A stretch of DNA of 64,000 bases from Candidatus Helarchaeota archaeon (GCA_029838215.1 JALGVI010000012.1:1-64000), one strand, 5' to 3'. Positions 9,023-18,452 are shown, numbered from the stretch's first letter. Notes: generated by a model not told the origin, from the sequence alone. Made by a program: numbers and translations.

Positions 9023-10108
9023 TTATTTAAGAAGAACATCAAGAAAATCCTGAATTAATTTCACGGTTTGATCTTCTTTACCTGATTTTAATTTTGCTTG
9101 CAAAAAATGCACGTCAATTTCATTGAAATCAAGTCCGATTAACTCAAATTTTTTACTTGCAAGGCATTTATTGATGCTCTTGGCCATTTCAATCAATACG
9201 TGTAGTTTCAAGCCAAAAACATCCAAAAAACGTGTTGCCAAGACTGCTTCAAAGGCACTAACGTCGACATCAAAAGAAATGTAAACATAGGGTGTCTTGA
9301 TTTTTGCCAATAATCCATCGAAATCCGAAATCATGGCTTCTTGATCATCCGATTTGGGAAGAAATGTCACGCCATCACGTTCGTGTTTAAGGTACTCGTT
9401 GACAAAATTCTGAACACGCTCATCGCTTATATTTCTCATTTGCTCTACGGGATAATCCGAGACTCCAACTAAAAATAGATTTGAAGGATGCACGATCCGG
9501 TTTTGAAGAACGTGCAAGAGGAAAGTTCCGCAATTATAAGAAGCAGGGATTTCTGCCTTTGAGACATCTATGAATTCTTTTTGGTCGGGGAGTAAAGTTT
9601 CGACTTGATTTTCCTTTGCATATTGTGCCAATTTAAGACGGATGGTCGAAGGTATGGCATCAAAATGCGCATCAAATACAATGGTGCTGATTTGATCTGA
9701 ACCGTGATGATCCGAAAGAGCCTTTAAAACACCACCCGTTGGTGAATGGTCAGGCGTGATGAGAAGTGGCATGTCGGGCAAGATTTTTTCTCTTACAAAC
9801 AGCTCTGTTTTCTCAAAATACTCAAAAGCACCATTAGAATCCAAAAAAATTCTAAAATCTATGGGCGAAACAAGCAATGCATCTTCTGGTCGTGGTTTCG
9901 GGGTCAACCACGTTTCTACGGGAACCTTGCCCACGAATTCAATCTCATCCAACCGGATCAATGCTTTAAAAGCATCATAAGGATCGAGATAATCGGGCAA
10001 TTTTACTTTATTCTTGGCAAGTTTTTCCATGTAAGCATGCTTGATCATCAGGCTCCGCGGTGAATCCGATGCGTCCAAAGCCACTCCAAAAGCCTTAATC
10101 TTTTTCAA
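9023..10108 (-). CDS. Arginase/agmatinase (ureohydrolase) family protein
   Basis: Metal-binding motifs PDHS, DAHFD and SFDVDV; also LIGLDFNE. Confidence 0.85.
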   Translation of the reverse strand: MKKIKAFGVALDASDSPRSLMIKHAYMEKLAKNKVKLPDYLDPYDAFKALIRLDEIEFVGKVPVETWLTPKPRPEDALLVSPIDFRIFLDSNGAFEYFEKTELFVREKILPDMPLLITPDHSPTGGVLKALSDHHGSDQISTIVFDAHFDAIPSTIRLKLAQYAKENQVETLLPDQKEFIDVSKAEIPASYNCGTFLLHVLQNRIVHPSNLFLVGVSDYPVEQMRNISDERVQNFVNEYLKHERDGVTFLPKSDDQEAMISDFDGLLAKIKTPYVYISFDVDVSAFEAVLATRFLDVFGLKLHVLIEMAKSINKCLASKKFELIGLDFNEIDVHFLQAKLKSGKEDQTVKLIQDFLDVLLK

Positions 10109-10168
10109 TTTTATCGCTCGACGATTTTCTTAGACCTGAAGACGTGATTATTTCACATACCATGCTTT

Positions 10169-10981
10169 TTACGGTTTATCCCACTTCGGTCTTACAAATG
10201 GTGGATTCACGCATCTTTTTTCCGTTTGGATTGATTCTATGATCTCCAAATCTTCCGCATCCAGAGTAATGTTTAATGCATCATGACAATCTTTAATATG
10301 TGACTCGCTCGTTGCTTTTGGAATGGGAACCGCTCCGTGTTCCATTATCCATGCAAGCGATACTTGAAACTCACTAACCCTGTGCTTGCTTGCAACTTGA
10401 GATATTTCGGGATAATTCTTGATTTTTCCTCTTGCCAGCGGAGAATAAGCGACCAAATAAATATTTTTTTGGGCTTGATATTCTCGCAGCGTTTTTTGCT
10501 TTAATAGGGGATGATGTTCTACTTGGTTTGCTACAATTGGTTTATCACACGTTGCTATTGCTTCATCTAAACGTTTAATATTAAAATTCGATACTCCCAC
10601 ATGCTTGATCTTGCCTTCATCTACCAATTCACTGAAGGCAGCTAAAGTCTTGTTTGCTTTATAAAAAAATGGCATCGGCCAATGAACATATAATAGGTCA
10701 ACATTATCAAGCCGGAGCTTTTCTAAACTTTGGTACGTACTTTTCTTAACGCTTTTCGGTCTAAGCTTATGAATCCATACTTTTGTCGCAATGATTAGAT
10801 CCTTACGATCAATTGTTGCTTCGGCTAATGCTGCCCCTACTTGTGATTCGTTTCCATAAGCCTGAGCAGTGTCAATGTGCCTAAATCCAATATCAATGGC
10901 TTTTAATACCGATTTCGTGCAGGTTTCGCCCTTTAATTGCCAAGTTCCAAAACCGATTCTTGGAAGTTTTAATTCTGCCAT
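10169..10981 (-). CDS. Aldo/keto reductase
   Basis: IGFGTWQL, HIDTAQAY, ATKVW, YVHWP, GVSNF, NQVEHHP, AYSPLARG and IPKA motifs. Confidence 0.95.
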   Translation of the reverse strand: MAELKLPRIGFGTWQLKGETCTKSVLKAIDIGFRHIDTAQAYGNESQVGAALAEATIDRKDLIIATKVWIHKLRPKSVKKSTYQSLEKLRLDNVDLLYVHWPMPFFYKANKTLAAFSELVDEGKIKHVGVSNFNIKRLDEAIATCDKPIVANQVEHHPLLKQKTLREYQAQKNIYLVAYSPLARGKIKNYPEISQVASKHRVSEFQVSLAWIMEHGAVPIPKATSESHIKDCHDALNITLDAEDLEIIESIQTEKRCVNPPFVRPKWDKP

Positions 10982-11091
10982 TCAAGTCACTTTTTGTTAA
11001 ATCTTTTATAATAATCGTATTTTAAAATTGATCATTCAGTTTTAATGCAATTCGCAAGATTTAAAAGTAATTAGAAAAAAAATGAGGTTTT

Positions 11092-11351
11092 TTAATCGCT
11101 TCGGAGCAATTTTATGATGAAAATTGCAAATATAGCGTACACCGGAATCTGGATGAGAACAATCAGAAATAATAGCTCAAAGATATTGAGGGGATATGGT
11201 CCCGCTACTTGTCCATCATACCACGGACCAAAAGGATATGCGAATGGCCAAAAGCAAAAACAATGAGACCGGCAATCACGTTTGCAATCCAGAACCCGAA
11301 GAAACCTAACAGTGGAATTATTATGAATTTTTTATCCTTCACGTCGGCCAT
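11092..11351 (-). pseudogene. Small 2-TM protein, paralog of 12310-12552, split by a one-base frameshift
   Basis: ATG at 11351, 1 nt after the CruF-like stop, gives MADVKDKKFIIIPLLGFFGFWIANVIAGLIVFAF. Another frame continues WPFAYPFGPWYDGQVAGPYPLNIFELLFLIVLIQIPVYAIFAIFIIKLLRSD* (TAA at 11092-11094). The span is 260 nt, one base short of a whole number of codons, at a T-run. Confidence 0.6.
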
Positions 11352-11352
11352 G

Positions 11353-12135
11353 TCATATGCCTCCAAAAGTGATATTATATCCCCAGAATGGCGTTAGTGC
11401 TAAGACGATCGTTAATCCTCCTACCAGAAAAATTGTTCCAATTTCTAACATCAGCAATAAAGGATAAAACGCAACTATCGTCCATTTCTTGCCAATCTTC
11501 TCTTCAAGTCCACAAATTTTTGGCCAAAACATAGCAAAACACGAAATCAAGATCCACCAACCGATGAAATTCGAAATCGGTATGCCAAGAATGCATAGCG
11601 CTTCACCCGGCGTGTTCAACCAGTACCAGTTACGAAGTCGTGTTTGAAAAGGATCAATCATCAAGTCCATGACCATGGCAAGTAGCCCGCACAGGACCGA
11701 TTTAATGACCAATCCTTTATTTCCTTCCACGTTGTTAAAGATGTAATCCATAATCTCATAGGAAGAATAGGCAATAACGAACCATGCAACGCAGACAACA
11801 ATAGGAACTGCCATGAACCAAAGCGTATAGGCATGATAGTTGAACTGATATGTATTTTGTGTTGGTATGAAATATCCTGCAACTATCATGAAATTCTCTT
11901 CCAATCCCGTATACACGAAAGACCCCGAAAAGAAAAGTAACATCTTCCAAAGGTCATACTTCTTCGACCCGTGATATATTAGCATTATTGCAATGCCATA
12001 GGTCATCGCATCCATGATCCAGACACCAGGGTTCGTGAGGAGCATCGTCACTATGTAAAATGGCTTGATTGGAAGAAAAAAGAATTCAAAAAAGAATGGT
12101 TGATAACTCGTCATTCTCGAAGCCCTCAGAAACAT
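11353..12135 (-). CDS. CruF-like (carotenoid 1,2-hydratase / DUF422 family) membrane protein
   Basis: VPIVVCVAWFVIAY, MDLMIDP, WYW and GIPISNFIGW match the family pattern. The start codon is uncertain and may lie downstream. Confidence 0.75.
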   Translation of the reverse strand: MFLRASRMTSYQPFFFEFFFLPIKPFYIVTMLLTNPGVWIMDAMTYGIAIMLIYHGSKKYDLWKMLLFFSGSFVYTGLEENFMIVAGYFIPTQNTYQFNYHAYTLWFMAVPIVVCVAWFVIAYSSYEIMDYIFNNVEGNKGLVIKSVLCGLLAMVMDLMIDPFQTRLRNWYWLNTPGEALCILGIPISNFIGWWILISCFAMFWPKICGLEEKIGKKWTIVAFYPLLLMLEIGTIFLVGGLTIVLALTPFWGYNITFGGI

Positions 12136-12309
12136 GTTTTAGAATTAAAATCAACTTACTTCTCCTTTTTAATCTTTCCTTATTTGTTTAAATTTGCATT
12201 ATTCATGCATAGAGAGAATTTGATATCTGCATGCGAAATTTGAAAAAAAAGACAAGATAAAAGGAATGCAGGACAGATCTTGGAGCTCGGATGGATGACC
12301 GTCTCGTGT

Positions 12310-12552
12310 TCATGGTTCGGCAGGAGCTTCTCCTTTTTTTATTTTGATCACGGCATAAATGGCACAAATCCAGAAAGGAGTCGGAATGAGATATAGAATG
12401 AGAAGTTTCACGATATCAAGCGGAACGGTACTAGAATATGGTGATAAAACCGAGGTTATCTGAAAAATAAAGACGATCAGACCGATGACATAATAAATGA
12501 CTGCAAATCCCATGATGGAAATAATAGGGAAGTATCTCTTTTCGATTTTCAT
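12310..12552 (-). CDS. Small 2-TM protein downstream of CruF-like gene
   Basis: Two hydrophobic helices; starts 10 nt after the CruF-like stop; has a paralog at 11092-11351. Confidence 0.7.
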   Translation of the reverse strand: MKIEKRYFPIISIMGFAVIYYVIGLIVFIFQITSVLSPYSSTVPLDIVKLLILYLIPTPFWICAIYAVIKIKKGEAPAEP

Positions 12553-12562
12553 GATTCACACC

Positions 12563-13300
12563 TCATATTGGACCGCCAAACGTCCAAAACGTGATATCTA
12601 CTCCGTTCAAGATTGATAAAGGAATGGTCACTCCGATAATGATGACGACAGTTGCTACAAGCAGACCGAGCAATCCTGCAAAAAAGATCAGCGTTTTTTT
12701 CACGGGTTTCCAATCTTTTTCCGTTATTTTAGTCCAATAGATCGAAAATAGGAAGATGAGCAAGAACCATCCATAGAAATTACTTATCGGTATGCCCAGA
12801 ACCCACACATTTGCATTTCTTGCGGAAAGCCAATACCAAAACGTGTAACGCACGGCAATGGGATCCACCATTAAATCAATATTCATCGCCAGCAATCCTG
12901 CCAAAACGGATTTTTTATACAACCCCCACTTGGGAGCCATGGTATCAGCGATGTAAAATGCACCGTAGGCGAGAATGAACCACGAACATCCTGCAACGAT
13001 CGGGACGGCTAACCACCAGAAAATATTTGTCTGAAAATTGAAATAATAAGTTGGAATGCTCCCGGGAAGGTTTCCCATGATTATCCAAAAGTTTTCTTCT
13101 CCACACGTAAACACGAAGGACCCGAAAAAGAATAGGCAGGTATTGAGCAAGCCGTGATTTTTAACGGCATGATAAAATGTCAGGGCTGTTAGAACATAGA
13201 TAATGATTTCGATAGTTATTGAAACAGGATTAAATGCACGAACATCTTTAATCACCCAGAATAGTCGGATCCAAAAATCCGGTGGAACAGGACTTGTCAC
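12563..13300 (-). CDS. CruF-like (carotenoid 1,2-hydratase / DUF422 family) membrane protein
   Basis: VPIVAGCSWFILAY, IDLMVDP, WYW and GIPISNFYGW; paralog of 11353-12135. Confidence 0.78.
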   Translation of the reverse strand: MTSPVPPDFWIRLFWVIKDVRAFNPVSITIEIIIYVLTALTFYHAVKNHGLLNTCLFFFGSFVFTCGEENFWIIMGNLPGSIPTYYFNFQTNIFWWLAVPIVAGCSWFILAYGAFYIADTMAPKWGLYKKSVLAGLLAMNIDLMVDPIAVRYTFWYWLSARNANVWVLGIPISNFYGWFLLIFLFSIYWTKITEKDWKPVKKTLIFFAGLLGLLVATVVIIIGVTIPLSILNGVDITFWTFGGPI

Positions 13301-13448
13301 GTTATCCTCTCGCCGAACACGTCAAAATTCTATATTATCTTTGAATTAGGTCTGCTTCTATTTAAGATTTCTTCTTAGACCAATTCCAAAGAAGTTAAAA
13401 ATTTGCAGGCATGTTCGTTAAGAAAAAAGAGATTGGTTTTAAAAGATA

Positions 13449-14309
13449 TTAATATTTCACGCCTTTTTCTGCAATGCGCATCATTACTTGGTTCCTTAGA
13501 CTCGGGAAATCCATTTCTCGGTAACCTATCGGGTCGATTTTAGTGCGGATCATGTTGACTTCTTCATCTGTTGGTGCTCTAGTCGTGGGTATTTTTTCGG
13601 GGAGTACCGGTTCGAATCCCGTGTTCTCAAGGACTTCATCCAAGGTGATTCCTGGATGGATGCTCTTGATCATCATTGCACTTGTTTCGGGATCCGGTTC
13701 AAACACGCACAAGTTCGTTACAAATGCGATGCAACCTTCTCCTAAATTCAGGTCTCGTCGCCATTTAGAACGTGGATAACCCTTGACCATGAGGAAATCA
13801 ACTTTTTCAACGAGATTGCGCTTGATGTGGCGGGTTGTATAAAGCACGACACGTCCCATCAGATTAATGGCATCACTGACCGCCATCCCTCCTGGCAGGC
13901 GAAGTTTTGGCTTATGATAATTTTTTTCTTCGCCATAAATTACCGTATTGTTGCAATTAAAATATTTATCGATCTGTGCAGGTCTTAAAAATTCCAAGCT
14001 TAATCGTCCTTTTTGCCATTGATCCCACATCTCTCGAGCGTGCAGGTAATTTGTCAGCTTGATTTGTTCCCCATAATTTTTCAGACCTTCAGTCATTAAT
14101 TTCTCAAAGTTGATCGGTTCTGATGGCGAGACACCAAACGCAGAAAAGTACGTGATGTCAGGGGCGTGTGTTGCACGGGCTAGCTCAATTGCGACCATGG
14201 GTAACGGTGTTGCAGCACCTTGAAACATCACGTCACCATTCTTAATGTAATTTGCCAGCGTTACAGCCATTAATTCTGGAATCGTGAACTTTTGATCTTC
14301 TCCACTCAT
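13449..14309 (-). CDS. Class I CoA-transferase beta subunit-like (GctB/CatJ/IpdB fold), canonical Glu absent
   Basis: LARATHAPD, AQIDKYFNCN, KLRLPGG, VTNLCVF, SIHPG and PTDEEV..IR..IDP. Confidence 0.85.
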   Translation of the reverse strand: MSGEDQKFTIPELMAVTLANYIKNGDVMFQGAATPLPMVAIELARATHAPDITYFSAFGVSPSEPINFEKLMTEGLKNYGEQIKLTNYLHAREMWDQWQKGRLSLEFLRPAQIDKYFNCNNTVIYGEEKNYHKPKLRLPGGMAVSDAINLMGRVVLYTTRHIKRNLVEKVDFLMVKGYPRSKWRRDLNLGEGCIAFVTNLCVFEPDPETSAMMIKSIHPGITLDEVLENTGFEPVLPEKIPTTRAPTDEEVNMIRTKIDPIGYREMDFPSLRNQVMMRIAEKGVKY

Positions 14310-15181
14310 TTATTCTGCCTCCACCACTCCGTCAATTTTAACTTGAATTTATTCAAGTACTGTTCTCTATTGAAAGGAAACACGTTCTTTTCAAGATATC
14401 TTGCAAGCCGCCTTTGTTTTTTCAAGGCATTTCCAAGCGTCATCTGAACTGCCATGTCGTAGAAGTACAACGGTTTTACCATTCCGGGATGAGCACCATA
14501 TGGGACTTCAACCACGTAATCAACTTCAAAATTATTCAAGATCGTGTTAATGGGATTCCGGTAAATGTATTCCGTGTCCACGACCTTTTCAACAGTAACG
14601 ATGACTTTTCCACCTTTTTTAACCGAACGGGAAATGGAATCATCCATGTATGTCTTGATGTCTTCATACTGAATGTTACCCTGGTGGTCTCCGACCATTG
14701 CGTGAATCACCGTGAAGTCCGATTCTACTGCTTTTACTGCTACCAATTTTTGACCTTCAAATTCGATTTCTTTTAGGTAAGGGTTCACGTCTAATAATTC
14801 AGAATCATAACCGGATCGACAGGGCAAGTACGGCAAGCCCATTTCTGCAGCTCTCATCGCCCAGAAGAATTGCATTTCCGTGAATTCATTCACGTGAAGC
14901 GTCCCTTCTTGGACACGAGTCTGAAAATTGGGCGCAAAACCAGCGGTTTCTAAGCCAACATAAATCGTATTTAATTTGGAAATGCAGTCCATGCCAATCA
15001 TGGCATCTATTCCAAAATTTCCAGTGAGAACTGAAACTGTTAGATCTTTCTTTTGTTGTTTGATAATTTCATAGATGAATGCCATGGGTTTCATTTGCAT
15101 GAGCACGCCTCCAATGGCGATGCTGTCTCCATCATTGATCATACCCACGGCATCTTCTAATGAGATGACTTTATCTTTCAT
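14306..15181 (-). CDS. Class I CoA-transferase alpha subunit-like (GctA/CatI/IpdA fold)
   Basis: KVISLEDAV..INDGDSIAIGG, KPMAF, AAEMGLPYLP, GDHQGN and VVEVPYGAHP. Start taken at the ATG at 15181, which follows a GGAGA RBS. Confidence 0.85.
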   Translation of the reverse strand: MKDKVISLEDAVGMINDGDSIAIGGVLMQMKPMAFIYEIIKQQKKDLTVSVLTGNFGIDAMIGMDCISKLNTIYVGLETAGFAPNFQTRVQEGTLHVNEFTEMQFFWAMRAAEMGLPYLPCRSGYDSELLDVNPYLKEIEFEGQKLVAVKAVESDFTVIHAMVGDHQGNIQYEDIKTYMDDSISRSVKKGGKVIVTVEKVVDTEYIYRNPINTILNNFEVDYVVEVPYGAHPGMVKPLYFYDMAVQMTLGNALKKQRRLARYLEKNVFPFNREQYLNKFKLKLTEWWRQNK

Positions 15182-15282
15182 GATTTCATCTCCAATGTTG
15201 ATAAATCGTTCTGAAAAAAGAAAGGAATTTGATTTTAAGAAAGTTGTTCTTAGTTTAAAAGAGAAAAAGTCCGCCAAAAAAA

Positions 15283-16746
15283 TTAAAGGATTTTTTGCTC
15301 TTGGAAGTATTCAAATAGTTCCAAAGCTGAATTTGCCGCCAGTTCAGTGCCAACACCCCAGCCACCTGCGTCGCCTCCTACCAAATAGAGATTCTTGATG
15401 GGAGTGATACTTGATGGTCGTTTTTTCCCGACCTGTCCGATGACTTGTCCAATACCCGTGCCTGCACCTTCTTTTCCCAACTTTGATTCTAAAAACACGT
15501 CTGAAACAAAATCCGTCCATAATATGTGTCCGTCTATCTCCGGCCATAGATCAAGCAGCGTGTTCAAGCAGGTTTCCTCCCATTTTTTATTCATCTTGCG
15601 CCGTTCTTCCATGGTTCCTCCGATTCCTAACGTTGGCGTCACGCAATGGAGATTCTGGCATCCCTTTGGTGCCAAATTTGGATCTAAGTTTGAGATCGGC
15701 ACGATCATTATGACACTCTTGCTCGGAACATCGTCAATGGTTAGCTGTTTTTTCTCACCTTCGACATTTGAGAAGTCTATGCTCTTAACATCTTTAGCAT
15801 CCATTTTTGGAACGTAATTTAACCATTTATCATCCGTCACGTGGATGTCGATGCCTAACTTTAATGAACAGACTTGCCCTCCCCAACTCAGGTTTTTTAT
15901 GCGCTCCACGTATTCTTTTTCAAAATGTTTTTCGCCGACAAGCTTTAGAATCGTGGTCTTAATATCTGAATTGGCTATGATCACGTCTGCTTCGTGATAT
16001 TCATTATCAGGTCCTACTTCCACTCCTTTGGCGACACCATCTTCAACGATGATCTTATTAACCGTGACGTTTTGCTTGACTTCTCCTCTATTTTCTTCAA
16101 CGGCTTGACAATAGGCATTTGGAATGGACTGGCATCCGCCTTTAACGTACCCCATGCTCATCGTTTCGGCATTTTTCTTGCTACATCTAAGGAATTCTCC
16201 CGTAGAAGTCGTATTCGGACCCGTTCCGAACATCAAGCCTGCTTGGAGGGTATACATGAAGGCATTCAATTTCTTTTCTTTAAGATAATCTATTAATGGC
16301 AAATCGTCAAATTGATACGTTTCTTCGTATGAAATTTCCTGTAACAACTGCTTGAATGATTTTTTACGTGATTTTCGTGGTTTTCGTTCGGTTTTTGGTT
16401 TTTTCGAGACTTTTTTCAATCCAAAGCTCATGACCTGTCCCATTAGATTGATGCGCGGTCCTGGGTTTCGGCAATATGCCCATTCTACGGCATTTTCCTT
16501 TCCAATCTTGCGGAGAATATCTCCCAATGGTCCTTTATCACAATTTCCGAAAATATGCGTGCCAACGTCGCAGACCCACTTATAGCCGTTCTTGTCTTCT
16601 TTAGTATATGAACCACACCTACCACCAAGCCAGGAGTTTTGCTCAAAAATCGTGACTTTATTCCCTGTATTGGTAGCAATCAGTGCTCCAACTCCCGATC
16701 CACCGATTCCACTCCCAATAATAACGATATTTTTCACGTCATCCAC
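15283..16746 (-). CDS. Phytoene desaturase (CrtI/COG1233)-family FAD-dependent oxidoreductase
   Basis: Rossmann motif IIGSGIGG..FEQN..LGGRC, DVGTH, GGCQSIPNA, and C-terminal TPIKNLYLVGGD..G.GT. Confidence 0.85.
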   Translation of the reverse strand: MDDVKNIVIIGSGIGGSGVGALIATNTGNKVTIFEQNSWLGGRCGSYTKEDKNGYKWVCDVGTHIFGNCDKGPLGDILRKIGKENAVEWAYCRNPGPRINLMGQVMSFGLKKVSKKPKTERKPRKSRKKSFKQLLQEISYEETYQFDDLPLIDYLKEKKLNAFMYTLQAGLMFGTGPNTTSTGEFLRCSKKNAETMSMGYVKGGCQSIPNAYCQAVEENRGEVKQNVTVNKIIVEDGVAKGVEVGPDNEYHEADVIIANSDIKTTILKLVGEKHFEKEYVERIKNLSWGGQVCSLKLGIDIHVTDDKWLNYVPKMDAKDVKSIDFSNVEGEKKQLTIDDVPSKSVIMIVPISNLDPNLAPKGCQNLHCVTPTLGIGGTMEERRKMNKKWEETCLNTLLDLWPEIDGHILWTDFVSDVFLESKLGKEGAGTGIGQVIGQVGKKRPSSITPIKNLYLVGGDAGGWGVGTELAANSALELFEYFQEQKIL

Positions 16747-16788
16747 CTCTTTAAAAAGTAATAAAAGGAAAGAAAAAAGGTTTTAGAA

Positions 16789-17607
16789 TTATTTTCCCTT
16801 GAAAACGGGGTCTCGTTTTTCCTTGCGAGCTTTAAGAGCTTCGTTAAAATCTCCAGAAATCGCCGTCTTGTTAAGACCCTTATTTTCCCAATCTAGTGCA
16901 GTTTCCACTTCTTCAATTAGTGGTCTGTGTAATGCACGTTTTGCCATTCTAATGGCTAGAAATGCCCCTTTTGGAGGAATGATTTTCAATGCGGCTTCTC
17001 GCGCTGTATCCATTAATTTATCAAGAGGAACAACATCATTAACCAATCCTAGCTCAAGTGCCTTTTTAGCATCGATTTTTTCGCCAAAAAAGACAATTTC
17101 CTTGGTTTTATGAAAGCCGATGAGTCGCGGTAGAAGGTAAGTGCAGGCGAATTCCGGAATGATTCCAATTCTTACGAATGGGAGATGAATGTAGGCACTA
17201 TCTGCCATGTACACCAAGTCTGCACAAGCGAATGGCATTGTGAACCCCGCACCGATAGCCAAACCATTAATTGCGGCAATAATTGGTTTATCAAGTTTCC
17301 ACATTTTAACGCATAGTTTTTTTTGGGCGATATCAGTTATGTCTATTTCTTTTTTTAGTTCCGGGTCTAGCGTCTTTAGGAAATCCATGTTAAAGTATCC
17401 ACCAGAAGAAAACGCATCTTTGGCACCCGTGATGATCATGGCTCTTGCCGTTTTATCCTTGCCCATTATTTCCGTGGCGTACCATAACTCCAAGAAAGTG
17501 ATGTGACTCATTGCATTCTTTCTTTCAGGACGATTTAACGTGACGGTAACGATACCCGTTTTCTCGTCTTTTTCATAAACGATATCTTGGAAATCTTCAA
17601 TATTCAT
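16789..17607 (-). CDS. Enoyl-CoA hydratase/isomerase (crotonase) family protein
   Basis: VTLNRPERKNA, KPIIAAINGLAIGAG, PFVRIGIIPE, A.KALELGLVN and F.EK.R.PVFKGK. The PF..IG..PE pattern resembles isomerase-type members. Confidence 0.92.
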   Translation of the reverse strand: MNIEDFQDIVYEKDEKTGIVTVTLNRPERKNAMSHITFLELWYATEIMGKDKTARAMIITGAKDAFSSGGYFNMDFLKTLDPELKKEIDITDIAQKKLCVKMWKLDKPIIAAINGLAIGAGFTMPFACADLVYMADSAYIHLPFVRIGIIPEFACTYLLPRLIGFHKTKEIVFFGEKIDAKKALELGLVNDVVPLDKLMDTAREAALKIIPPKGAFLAIRMAKRALHRPLIEEVETALDWENKGLNKTAISGDFNEALKARKEKRDPVFKGK

Positions 17608-17717
17608 GGTCAACTCTTCCTTAAAAGTGAGATTGGTAAACAATTTCCAGATGGAATCAATTTATTATAAGTAGAATTAAAATTTAATCATATCTTGCTT
17701 ATTTCACATCATTTCAA

Positions 17718-18452
17718 GTGGCGTCCGCGTTGGAACGAAAACAAAGCATTAAAAATGCATTTGATCGTATTTCAGAGCATTGGGATCGTGTTCGACGGCA
17801 CGCGTGGCCAAACATGATTCAATTCATGAATGAGTTCGGATTTCAGGAAGGATCAAGCACGTGCTTGGATATTGCCGCAGGAAATGGGCGACACACGCGA
17901 TATATGGCTCAATTTAACGCGTTATCTATTGGAATCGACCTGTCGCTCAATTTATTAAAAATTGCCAAAGAAAAACACACACAAGTAAATTGTGAATATG
18001 TCAATGCTGATGCTGCCAATCTTCCGTTTCGTGACGGTGTTTTTGACAGGGTCATGTTTATTTCAGCACTTCATCACTTGCCAAATACTGGTCGTTCCGC
18101 AGCACTCATCGAACTAAAACGAGTAATGTTTCCGGAAGCACTTGCTCTTATCACGGTTTGGATGCGCTCACTCAAGCGATTTGCCATCTTTTTTTTATTG
18201 GATTTTTTATTTTTAACGTTCCTCAAATCAAGCGATAAAGAATTTGGAGACATTCATGTTCCTTGGAGAGACGAGAAAAAGCAAGTTATTGCAAGTCGTT
18301 TTTACCATTTATTCACCAAAAAAGAATTGGAAAACGATTTACTTGCGGCTGGTTTCGAAATCATGGAATCTCGCAAGTGTGCAGGTAAATCAGGTCAAGA
18401 AAATGTTTTTGCTCTGGTTAAATTGAAGAAAAAACTATTTAAATCAAAATAA
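17718..18452 (+). CDS. SAM-dependent methyltransferase, Trm9/ALKBH8-MTase-like
   Basis: LDIAAGNGRH, GIDLS, ISALHHL, LITVW, DIHVPW and RFYHLF..EL. Confidence 0.75.
   Translation: MASALERKQSIKNAFDRISEHWDRVRRHAWPNMIQFMNEFGFQEGSSTCLDIAAGNGRHTRYMAQFNALSIGIDLSLNLLKIAKEKHTQVNCEYVNADAANLPFRDGVFDRVMFISALHHLPNTGRSAALIELKRVMFPEALALITVWMRSLKRFAIFFLLDFLFLTFLKSSDKEFGDIHVPWRDEKKQVIASRFYHLFTKKELENDLLAAGFEIMESRKCAGKSGQENVFALVKLKKKLFKSK

Follow-up and report, generated by a model that had tools for sequence, protein, structure and literature searches.

Ten co-directional genes in a Candidatus Helarchaeota archaeon: one lipid-processing route or a juxtaposition of separate units

The region analyzed here lies in a 64,000-nucleotide stretch of DNA from Candidatus Helarchaeota archaeon (GCA_029838215.1, JALGVI010000012.1:1-64000), which at its full length is referred to as the window. 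It comprises ten open reading frames (ORFs) on the minus strand, all in the same direction, that span positions 9023-17643 (∼8.6 kb) and that the initial annotation had read as one lipid- or isoprenoid-processing route. Searches of the window proteins with Pfam and NCBIfam profiles, together with the ORFs themselves, bore out the ten minus-strand genes and the families named for them. In the order of transcription, the row begins with a crotonase-fold protein of apparent isomerase type that lacks the hydratase glutamates (ECH; 16789..17607; PF00378, ECH_1, 177 bits) and an FAD protein of the CrtI superfamily from a branch expanded in the Asgard archaea (CrtI-like; 15283..16746; PF13450, NAD_binding_8, and PF01593, Amino_oxidase). 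These are followed by a CoA-transferase-fold pair, in which alpha (14306..15181; PF01144, CoA_trans) keeps an IpdA-type glutamate and beta (13449..14309; PF01144) lacks the catalytic glutamate; the two CoA_trans matches scored 84 and 44.5 bits. Next are two copies of a CruF-like membrane protein, each with a small partner: the six-helix CruF1 (12563..13300; PF04240, Caroten_synth, 43.1 bits) with the two-helix protein sTM1 of 80 amino acids (aa) (12310..12552), and CruF2 (11353..12135; PF04240, 50.9 bits) with sTM2 (11092..11366), which by three-frame translation is interrupted by a frameshift in the assembly. The row ends with a DkgB-like aldo-keto reductase that is probably unlinked (AKR; 10169..10981; PF00248, Aldo_ket_red, 197 bits) and a divergent metallohydrolase of arginase fold, whose gene belongs to the core set of the order (9023..10108; PF00491, Arginase, 48.6 bits).

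Orthologue alignments and translations place the likely true starts of ECH at M13 (17607) and of alpha at M33 (15181). With the latter start, the gap between the CrtI-like and alpha genes, previously given as 5 bp, becomes 101 bp. The alpha and beta genes overlap by 4 bp, CruF2 and sTM2 also overlap, and sTM1 starts 10 bp after CruF1. The remaining gaps measure 42 bp (ECH to CrtI-like), 148 bp (beta to CruF1), 174 bp (sTM1 to CruF2), 223 bp (sTM2 to AKR, or ∼110 bp if sTM2 extends to 11092) and 60 bp (AKR to the arginase-fold gene). Horizontal insertion of the row was ruled out, its GC content being unremarkable.

For comparison, six genomes from the order to which the organism belongs and two more closely related contigs were used. 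The ECH, CrtI-like, alpha/beta and arginase-fold genes all have orthologues in these relatives, but these are scattered, and only the alpha-beta and CruF-partner pairs stay adjacent. Orthologues of the crotonase (60-67% identity, at other genome sites) and of the arginase-fold protein (43-47% identity, in other contexts) were each found in all six relatives, in which none of the other cluster genes occurs within 1.5 kb of either. The alpha/beta pair has orthologues of 64-73% identity (67-73% for alpha) in three genomes of the order (G123-G125); in G124 and G125 they adjoin a cyclophilin gene, without ECH or CrtI-like genes, and in G123 the contig is short and only the pair itself is visible. 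Alpha and beta are adjacent in every locus in which both genes occur. The CrtI-like orthologues (69-79% identity) lie in three other contexts, each different from the others. The neighbors of the 69% orthologue (G128) are a Na/Ca exchanger, a permease and a GGR-like flavoprotein, while two further contexts, read by eye, comprise the C-terminus of a thiolase, a DUF35-like ORF and the start of an acetyl-CoA synthetase (79% copy, on a metagenomic contig), and SDR-, Rrf2-, AOR- and SCP2-like ORFs (74% copy). The proposal that all ten genes form one route was to be given up if the genes proved not to be syntenic elsewhere; with the orthologues scattered in the relatives, this is largely what was found.

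The intergenic sequences point in the same direction. Runs of T6-T8 on the coding strand occur in the gaps after ECH, CrtI-like, beta, sTM1 and sTM2, i.e., after five of the six proposed transcription units; the tight pairs contain none, nor does the spacer that separates AKR from the arginase-fold gene. In total, 6 such runs are present in 645 intergenic bases versus 8 in 7,940 coding bases. They are probable archaeal terminators, although the indication is a weak one.

With a probability of roughly 55%, we regard the row as a genome-specific juxtaposition of independently inherited units and not as one conserved pathway. A first unit, formed by the isomerase-type crotonase, the CrtI-superfamily flavoprotein and the alpha/beta pair, would be concerned with acyl-CoA chemistry. 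The pair, in which the IpdAB-type base glutamate of alpha is kept, would hydrolyze a CoA thioester or split it in a retro-Claisen reaction, like IpdAB, or decarboxylate it, like AibAB, and the crotonase would possibly feed it. A second unit, present twice, would pair a CruF-like protein with its own two-helix subunit in a predicted heterodimer, which would hydrate a non-carotenoid membrane isoprenoid. The third would comprise the aldo-keto reductase and a manganese enzyme of ureohydrolase fold, both encoded by genes of the housekeeping type. Were the row one pathway, it would point to an undescribed anaerobic handling of isoprenoids among the archaea most closely related to eukaryotes; the evidence favors separate modules. 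What is new is not a system but two variants: a CruF protein that has its own subunit, and an IpdAB-like pair accompanied by a crotonase of the isomerase type.

Several observations weigh against the interpretation as a juxtaposition. The terminator assignment is weak because the spacers are AT-rich and T-runs are to be expected there. Gene order also decays fast in this group, the methyltransferase and adenylate kinase genes that flank the row not being kept near the ECH orthologues, so that lost synteny is only moderate evidence against a functional link. Moreover, at 3 of 10 independent loci outside the window, ECH, CrtI-like or alpha/beta genes are found no more than 2 kb from a CruF-partner module, a recurrence with a rough, post-hoc binomial p of ∼0.005-0.04. 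These neighbors are a divergent canonical ECH gene (G124:C215 and G123:C16, which are orthologous loci), a same-strand CrtI-like gene with an ADP-forming acyl-CoA-synthetase-like gene upstream (G128:C1), and an alpha/beta pair (G124:C4). In a genome of another Asgard family (G120), a crotonase of the FVRIG type, 38% identical to that of the window, is encoded two genes from a glutamate-less alpha/beta pair; since a similar pairing recurs there, the combination of crotonase and alpha/beta pair may be functional. On the other side, the ECH and CrtI-like neighbors of the relatives' CruF modules are paralogues different from those of the window, with 30% and 36% identity to them, respectively.

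Aligned to Crt from Clostridium acetobutylicum (5z7r), the window crotonase carries Thr and Phe in place of the pair of hydratase glutamates. Its FVRIGIIPE motif resembles the FVRIGLVPD of a Thermus entry listed as enoyl-CoA hydratase/carnithine racemase (6sl9), which we take to be PaaG, and the final Glu aligns with the Asp of the VPD motif in 6sl9. The protein shares with the PaaG-type isomerases (6sl9, 6sla, 6slb and 4fzw_C) the lack of both classical glutamates and the single acidic residue within an FVRIG-x-x-P-[DE] motif, and from these residues it looks like an isomerase of this type rather than a hydratase. It differs from PaaG itself in scoring 145 bits with TIGR02280, below the cut-off of 345, and in lacking a phenylacetate (paa) gene context. 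The crotonase reported by the initial annotation is upheld in its ECH_1 fold, while the missing hydratase glutamates and the PaaG-type appearance set it apart from an ordinary hydratase. Divergently from the crotonase gene, across a spacer of ∼110 bp, the window encodes a class I S-adenosylmethionine methyltransferase with weak likeness to UbiE/COQ5 (17718-18452, plus strand), which is not kept beside the crotonase orthologues. At one locus in G120 (L038; G120:C177:7000-21945), genes for a glutamate-less alpha/beta pair and an FVRIG-type crotonase are grouped with those for an acyl-CoA synthetase and a Ras-like GTPase and with an ORF of 132 aa; alpha at this locus has Ile at the position of the IpdA glutamate.

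The best match of alpha among solved structures is IpdA (6co6; 3e-27). In an alignment of 6co6, 6coj, 6con, 1poi and 5mzw, the Glu in the NEFTEMQ motif of alpha aligns with Glu105 of IpdA, a position at which GctA has Gln and AibA has Gly. Glu105 is presumably catalytic, in keeping with the difference between 6co6 and 6coj, the latter having Ala there. In beta, the catalytic Glu position of GctB is occupied by Ala, and the pair accordingly lacks the defining residue of the GctAB-type Family I CoA-transferases; because of this Ala, the pair cannot, as far as its residues tell, form a glutamyl-CoA intermediate. We infer that its most likely reaction is the hydrolysis, cleavage or decarboxylation of a CoA thioester, and not CoA transfer.

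Two known systems bear comparison with the pair. In IpdAB (6co6, 6coj, 6con), which works with the crotonase EchA20, alpha and beta share the CoA-transferase fold, beta lacks the nucleophilic Glu and alpha carries the Glu at position 105; the window pair shows the same residue signature and also has a crotonase gene nearby. In contrast to IpdAB, sequence identity is low and the steroid-catabolic gene set is missing: no steroid ring C/D catabolic genes were found in the row or its flanks, to which this search was directed. The signature of a Glu in alpha and none in beta is, moreover, common to most of the Asgard paralogues, in varied contexts, a few canonical pairs showing the opposite; its wide occurrence therefore identifies a large sister family distinct from IpdAB proper. 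The second system is the 3-methylglutaconyl-CoA decarboxylase AibA/AibB of Myxococcus xanthus with LiuC (5mzw; PMC7756340), also a GctAB-like pair without the catalytic Glu, which works alongside a crotonase on a CoA ester connected with isoprenoid (3-hydroxy-3-methylglutaryl-CoA, HMG-CoA) metabolism (PMC7756340). AibB has Cys56 at the former Glu position (PMC7756340), where the window beta has Ala, and alpha has Glu where AibA has Gly. Unlike the Aib system, neither HMG-CoA synthase nor an AibC-type reductase was found nearby. For the large family of glutamate-less, CoA-transferase-like pairs, the row adds one more context, beside an isomerase-type crotonase.

The CrtI-like protein contains the N-terminal FAD-binding Rossmann motif (PF13450, 41.9 bits), and its GSGIGGSG sequence is invariant in 11 orthologues. 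It scored 87.7 bits with crtI_fam (TIGR02734; cut-off 238.1) and at most 61 bits with the CrtD models, whose cut-offs are at least 500. Its nearest solved relatives are uncharacterized archaeal proteins and no desaturases: the best is PF1083 (3nrn; 7.7e-16), true carotenoid desaturases matched at ∼6e-5, and an oxidoreductase of Methanosarcina mazei (3ka7) gave a weak match of 1.4e-8 over 68 residues. The family is expanded in the genome itself, with ∼10-13 CrtI-superfamily paralogues, none of which exceeds the crtI_fam cut-off; acyl-CoA-type neighbors were found for three of nine of the others, against ∼26% expected, which is about the chance rate. CrtI paralogues were located on the genome's own contigs (G000) C102, C143, C164, C140, C37, C14, C131, C9, C22 and C13, and are in tandem on C164 and C37. 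Four of the closest relatives of the protein (P0002-P0005) are 75-80% identical to it. A metagenome scan with the CrtI-like alignment returned one 2.7-kb contig, and the same scan with the single protein as query returned no match; a scan of genome contigs contributed a single further useful one. A gene for a CrtI-like protein with 74% identity to its Asgard counterpart was also detected on a deltaproteobacterium-binned contig (L050; JBDKUG010000175.1, from a metagenome-assembled genome named 'Smithella sp.'), which points to mis-binning or recent transfer.

Both CruF-like proteins score above the PF04240 gathering cut-off of 25 bits. With the CruF equivalog TIGR03460 (cut-off 154.7), CruF1 reached 30 bits and CruF2 gave no match. 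The subfamily is narrow: every one of the order's 7 genomes has it, as do 6 of the 135 genomes from a neighboring family, and among 5.8 billion proteins only 36 word-sharing relatives were counted, whose source names, with one exception, read Helarchaeota or Helarchaeales. A literature search for PF04240/DUF422 turned up no relevant paper, only unrelated ones on DUF4228. Five PF04240 copies are present in the genome. CruF2 is 39% identical to CruF1 and 36-43% identical to every other member of the family, and by these identities is an old paralogue; a recent tandem duplication of the module was ruled out at this level of divergence. CruF1, for its part, has one relative of 82% identity. Four of its acidic residues (E68, E69, D142 and D146) are conserved, and its AlphaFold2 model (mean predicted local distance difference test score, pLDDT, 79.7) found no solved look-alike in a Foldseek search of the PDB.

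A homologous small gene is located directly 3′ of the CruF-like gene at all 11 of the loci examined outside the window. The encoded partners have 64-92 aa and two helices, with an N-terminal K-Y/F-x-P-I-I motif, a PLD loop and a basic tail. The second small membrane protein listed initially is indeed present after CruF2, but its gene is frameshifted: helix 1 lies in the frame of 11205-11366, whereas the sequence for a PLN loop and helix 2 is read in a different frame, ending near 11092, reflecting either a decaying gene or an assembly error. A model of CruF1 in complex with its partner scored 0.90, versus 0.00 for the best of three controls; of 80 solved complexes, 58 reached the mark applied to this score, as did 2 of the 110 pairs that were mismatched, counts that are rough owing to the use of our own alignments. 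The model runs agreed in at least 89% of the contacts, the partner had a pLDDT of at least 84, and the modelled interface takes in the conserved D142/D146 region. CruF1 and its partner are thus predicted to form a heterodimer.

The row does not encode carotenoid synthesis. The initial annotation had noted the absence of phytoene synthase from the window only; a search for crtB across the genome, which is 94.3% complete, likewise gave no match to SQS_PSY (PF00494), although control genomes scored. The genome encodes one polyprenyl synthase and three good UbiA genes; no UbiA gene was found beside the CruF-like copies, the five UbiA matches being located on contigs other than those of the CruF-like genes. 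The lack of a phytoene synthase in the genome and of a UbiA gene beside the CruF-like copies together support the earlier statement that this is not ordinary carotenoid synthesis. In the haloarchaeal bacterioruberin module CrtD-LyeJ-CruF of Haloarcula japonica (cited in PMC9258230), a PF04240 membrane protein is similarly combined with a CrtI-superfamily flavoprotein, and CruF hydrates a terminal isoprenoid double bond. The window differs from that module in having no LyeJ/UbiA neighbor, in the absence of a crtB match from the genome, in its TIGR03460 score (30 versus 154.7) and in the dedicated two-helix subunit, which is always present with the CruF-like gene.

Because of the chemistry of the family and the absence of crtB, we infer that the substrate of the CruF-partner module is most likely a membrane isoprenoid other than a carotenoid, one of whose double bonds it would hydrate. 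There is precedent in the archaea, in the CrtI-family hydroxyarchaeol synthase Has (MA0127) and the carotenoid-type hydratase Hgs, an AttH-like enzyme that makes hydroxylated glycerol dialkyl glycerol tetraethers (hydroxy-GDGTs) (bioRxiv 10.1101/2025.10.20.683597; PMC12777485). In both, a carotenoid-type family hydrates isoprenoid chains of lipids in anaerobic archaea, as is proposed here for the CruF-partner module. The likeness has its limits: Hgs belongs to the AttH/CrtC family and not to PF04240, and the CrtI-like protein of the window is not demonstrably an orthologue of Has. The CruF family of this Asgard lineage, which is free of carotenoids, probably serves as a hydratase of membrane lipids, and CruF with its small subunit offers a concrete candidate enzyme for hydroxylated or otherwise tailored archaeal lipids.

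Some further CruF loci show features of their own. The CruF-like orthologue of G126 (L077; G126:C10:8475-9230) contains three in-frame TGA codons that divide it into three short ORFs, while the partner gene is intact; the orthologue may be a pseudogene or may be recoded. A histone-deacetylase-fold gene abuts the CruF-partner module in G247 and G248 (L080:11335-12105 and L081:8548-9330, respectively), DUF362 genes recur near several CruF modules, and a phosphopantothenate synthetase gene lies directly upstream of the CruF copy on contig C58 of the genome itself (L002:306-1121).

The last two genes had been suspected of being unlinked, which for AKR is probably correct: its upstream gap holds a T8 run and a TATA-like box, and no AKR gene was found beside the arginase-fold orthologues of the relatives. 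The arginase-fold protein exceeds the PF00491 cut-off of 22 bits, remains far below the cut-offs of the agmatinase and arginase equivalogs, and retains the metal motifs DHS, DAHFD and SFDVDV, as read by eye in the translation. No sequence match was found in the PDB, and the nearest Atlas clusters are of the arginase family. Most likely, AKR and the arginase-fold enzyme are unrelated neighbors of the other genes.

A different, more tentative account, which we consider possible though unlikely, has the units working together, if only loosely, in a single route for the degradation or tailoring of an isoprenoid-derived acid, with acids from phytol or archaeal lipid tails as candidate substrates. 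The CruF-partner module would add water, the CrtI-like protein would shift, add or remove a double bond, the crotonase would isomerize the enoyl-CoA and the alpha/beta pair would cleave the product. Such cooperation would accord with the common direction of all the genes within 8.6 kb, with the recurrence of CruF modules near ECH, CrtI-like or alpha/beta genes in the relatives and with the pairing of crotonase and alpha/beta in G120; as the genome lacks the carotenoid backbone genes, another isoprenoid substrate would in any case be needed. It is opposed by the dispersal of the orthologues, by the terminator-like T-runs between the units and by the fact that the relatives' ECH and CrtI-like neighbors are other paralogues. 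In addition, the row contains no acyl-CoA synthetase, thiolase or dehydrogenase, and the CrtI-like paralogues of the genome show no enrichment in acyl-CoA neighbors. In a broader form, which we hold to be still less likely, Helarchaeota-type Asgards would remodel or break isoprenoids without oxygen by the joint action of heterodimeric CruF-like hydratases, flavoproteins of the CrtI-like group, crotonases of the isomerase type and C-C hydrolases resembling IpdAB, with phytol or archaeal ether-lipid tails as candidate substrates.

Alternatively, the CrtI-like protein and the CruF-partner module could form a membrane-lipid hydroxylation set resembling Has and Hgs, with the crotonase and the alpha/beta pair as bystanders. 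The published action of those enzymes on archaeal lipids (bioRxiv 10.1101/2025.10.20.683597; PMC12777485) lends this some plausibility, as does the arrangement in G128, in which the CruF, partner and CrtI-like genes lie on one strand with a 108-bp gap. We nevertheless judge it quite unlikely: the CrtI-like neighbor in G128 is the 36% paralogue, the alpha/beta pair intervenes between the CrtI-like and CruF1 genes in the window, and the match of the CrtI-like protein to 3ka7 of M. mazei is weak.

It is very unlikely that the pair acts as a ring-opening enzyme on a steroid-like or alicyclic CoA ester in the manner of IpdAB and EchA20 in the actinobacterial catabolism of cholesterol rings C/D. The steroid-like substrate that had been suggested has likeness to IpdAB as its sole basis: IpdA is the best solved match of alpha, the catalytic Glu is kept, beta has no transferase Glu and a crotonase is encoded nearby. 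Steroid ring C/D catabolism further involves acyl-CoA dehydrogenases, thiolase and acyl-CoA synthetase; the row carries no other gene type of this kind, identity to IpdAB is low, and the residue signature is shared by most of the Asgard paralogues in varied contexts. Finally, although carotenoid enzymes are the classic members of both PF04240 and the CrtI superfamily, tailoring by the row genes of a carotenoid or retinal precursor made elsewhere or imported is extremely improbable, given a 94%-complete genome without an SQS_PSY match, scores of the CruF-like and CrtI-like proteins far under the carotenoid equivalog cut-offs and a CrtI-like family expanded to more than 10 copies.

A group of proteins of ∼386-406 aa was also observed within a few kb of the alpha/beta, CrtI-like and CruF loci of the relatives. 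The group falls into two BLAST clusters; one member of one cluster matches URO-D, and two of the other have no Pfam match. It is probably a multi-copy family, and its recurrence may be due to chance. Its members are located at L036:11257-12420, L037:2982-4142, L042:17700-18881, L043:16159-17352, L078:995-2215, L078:13439-14596, L082:3700-4860 and L083:14530-15690.

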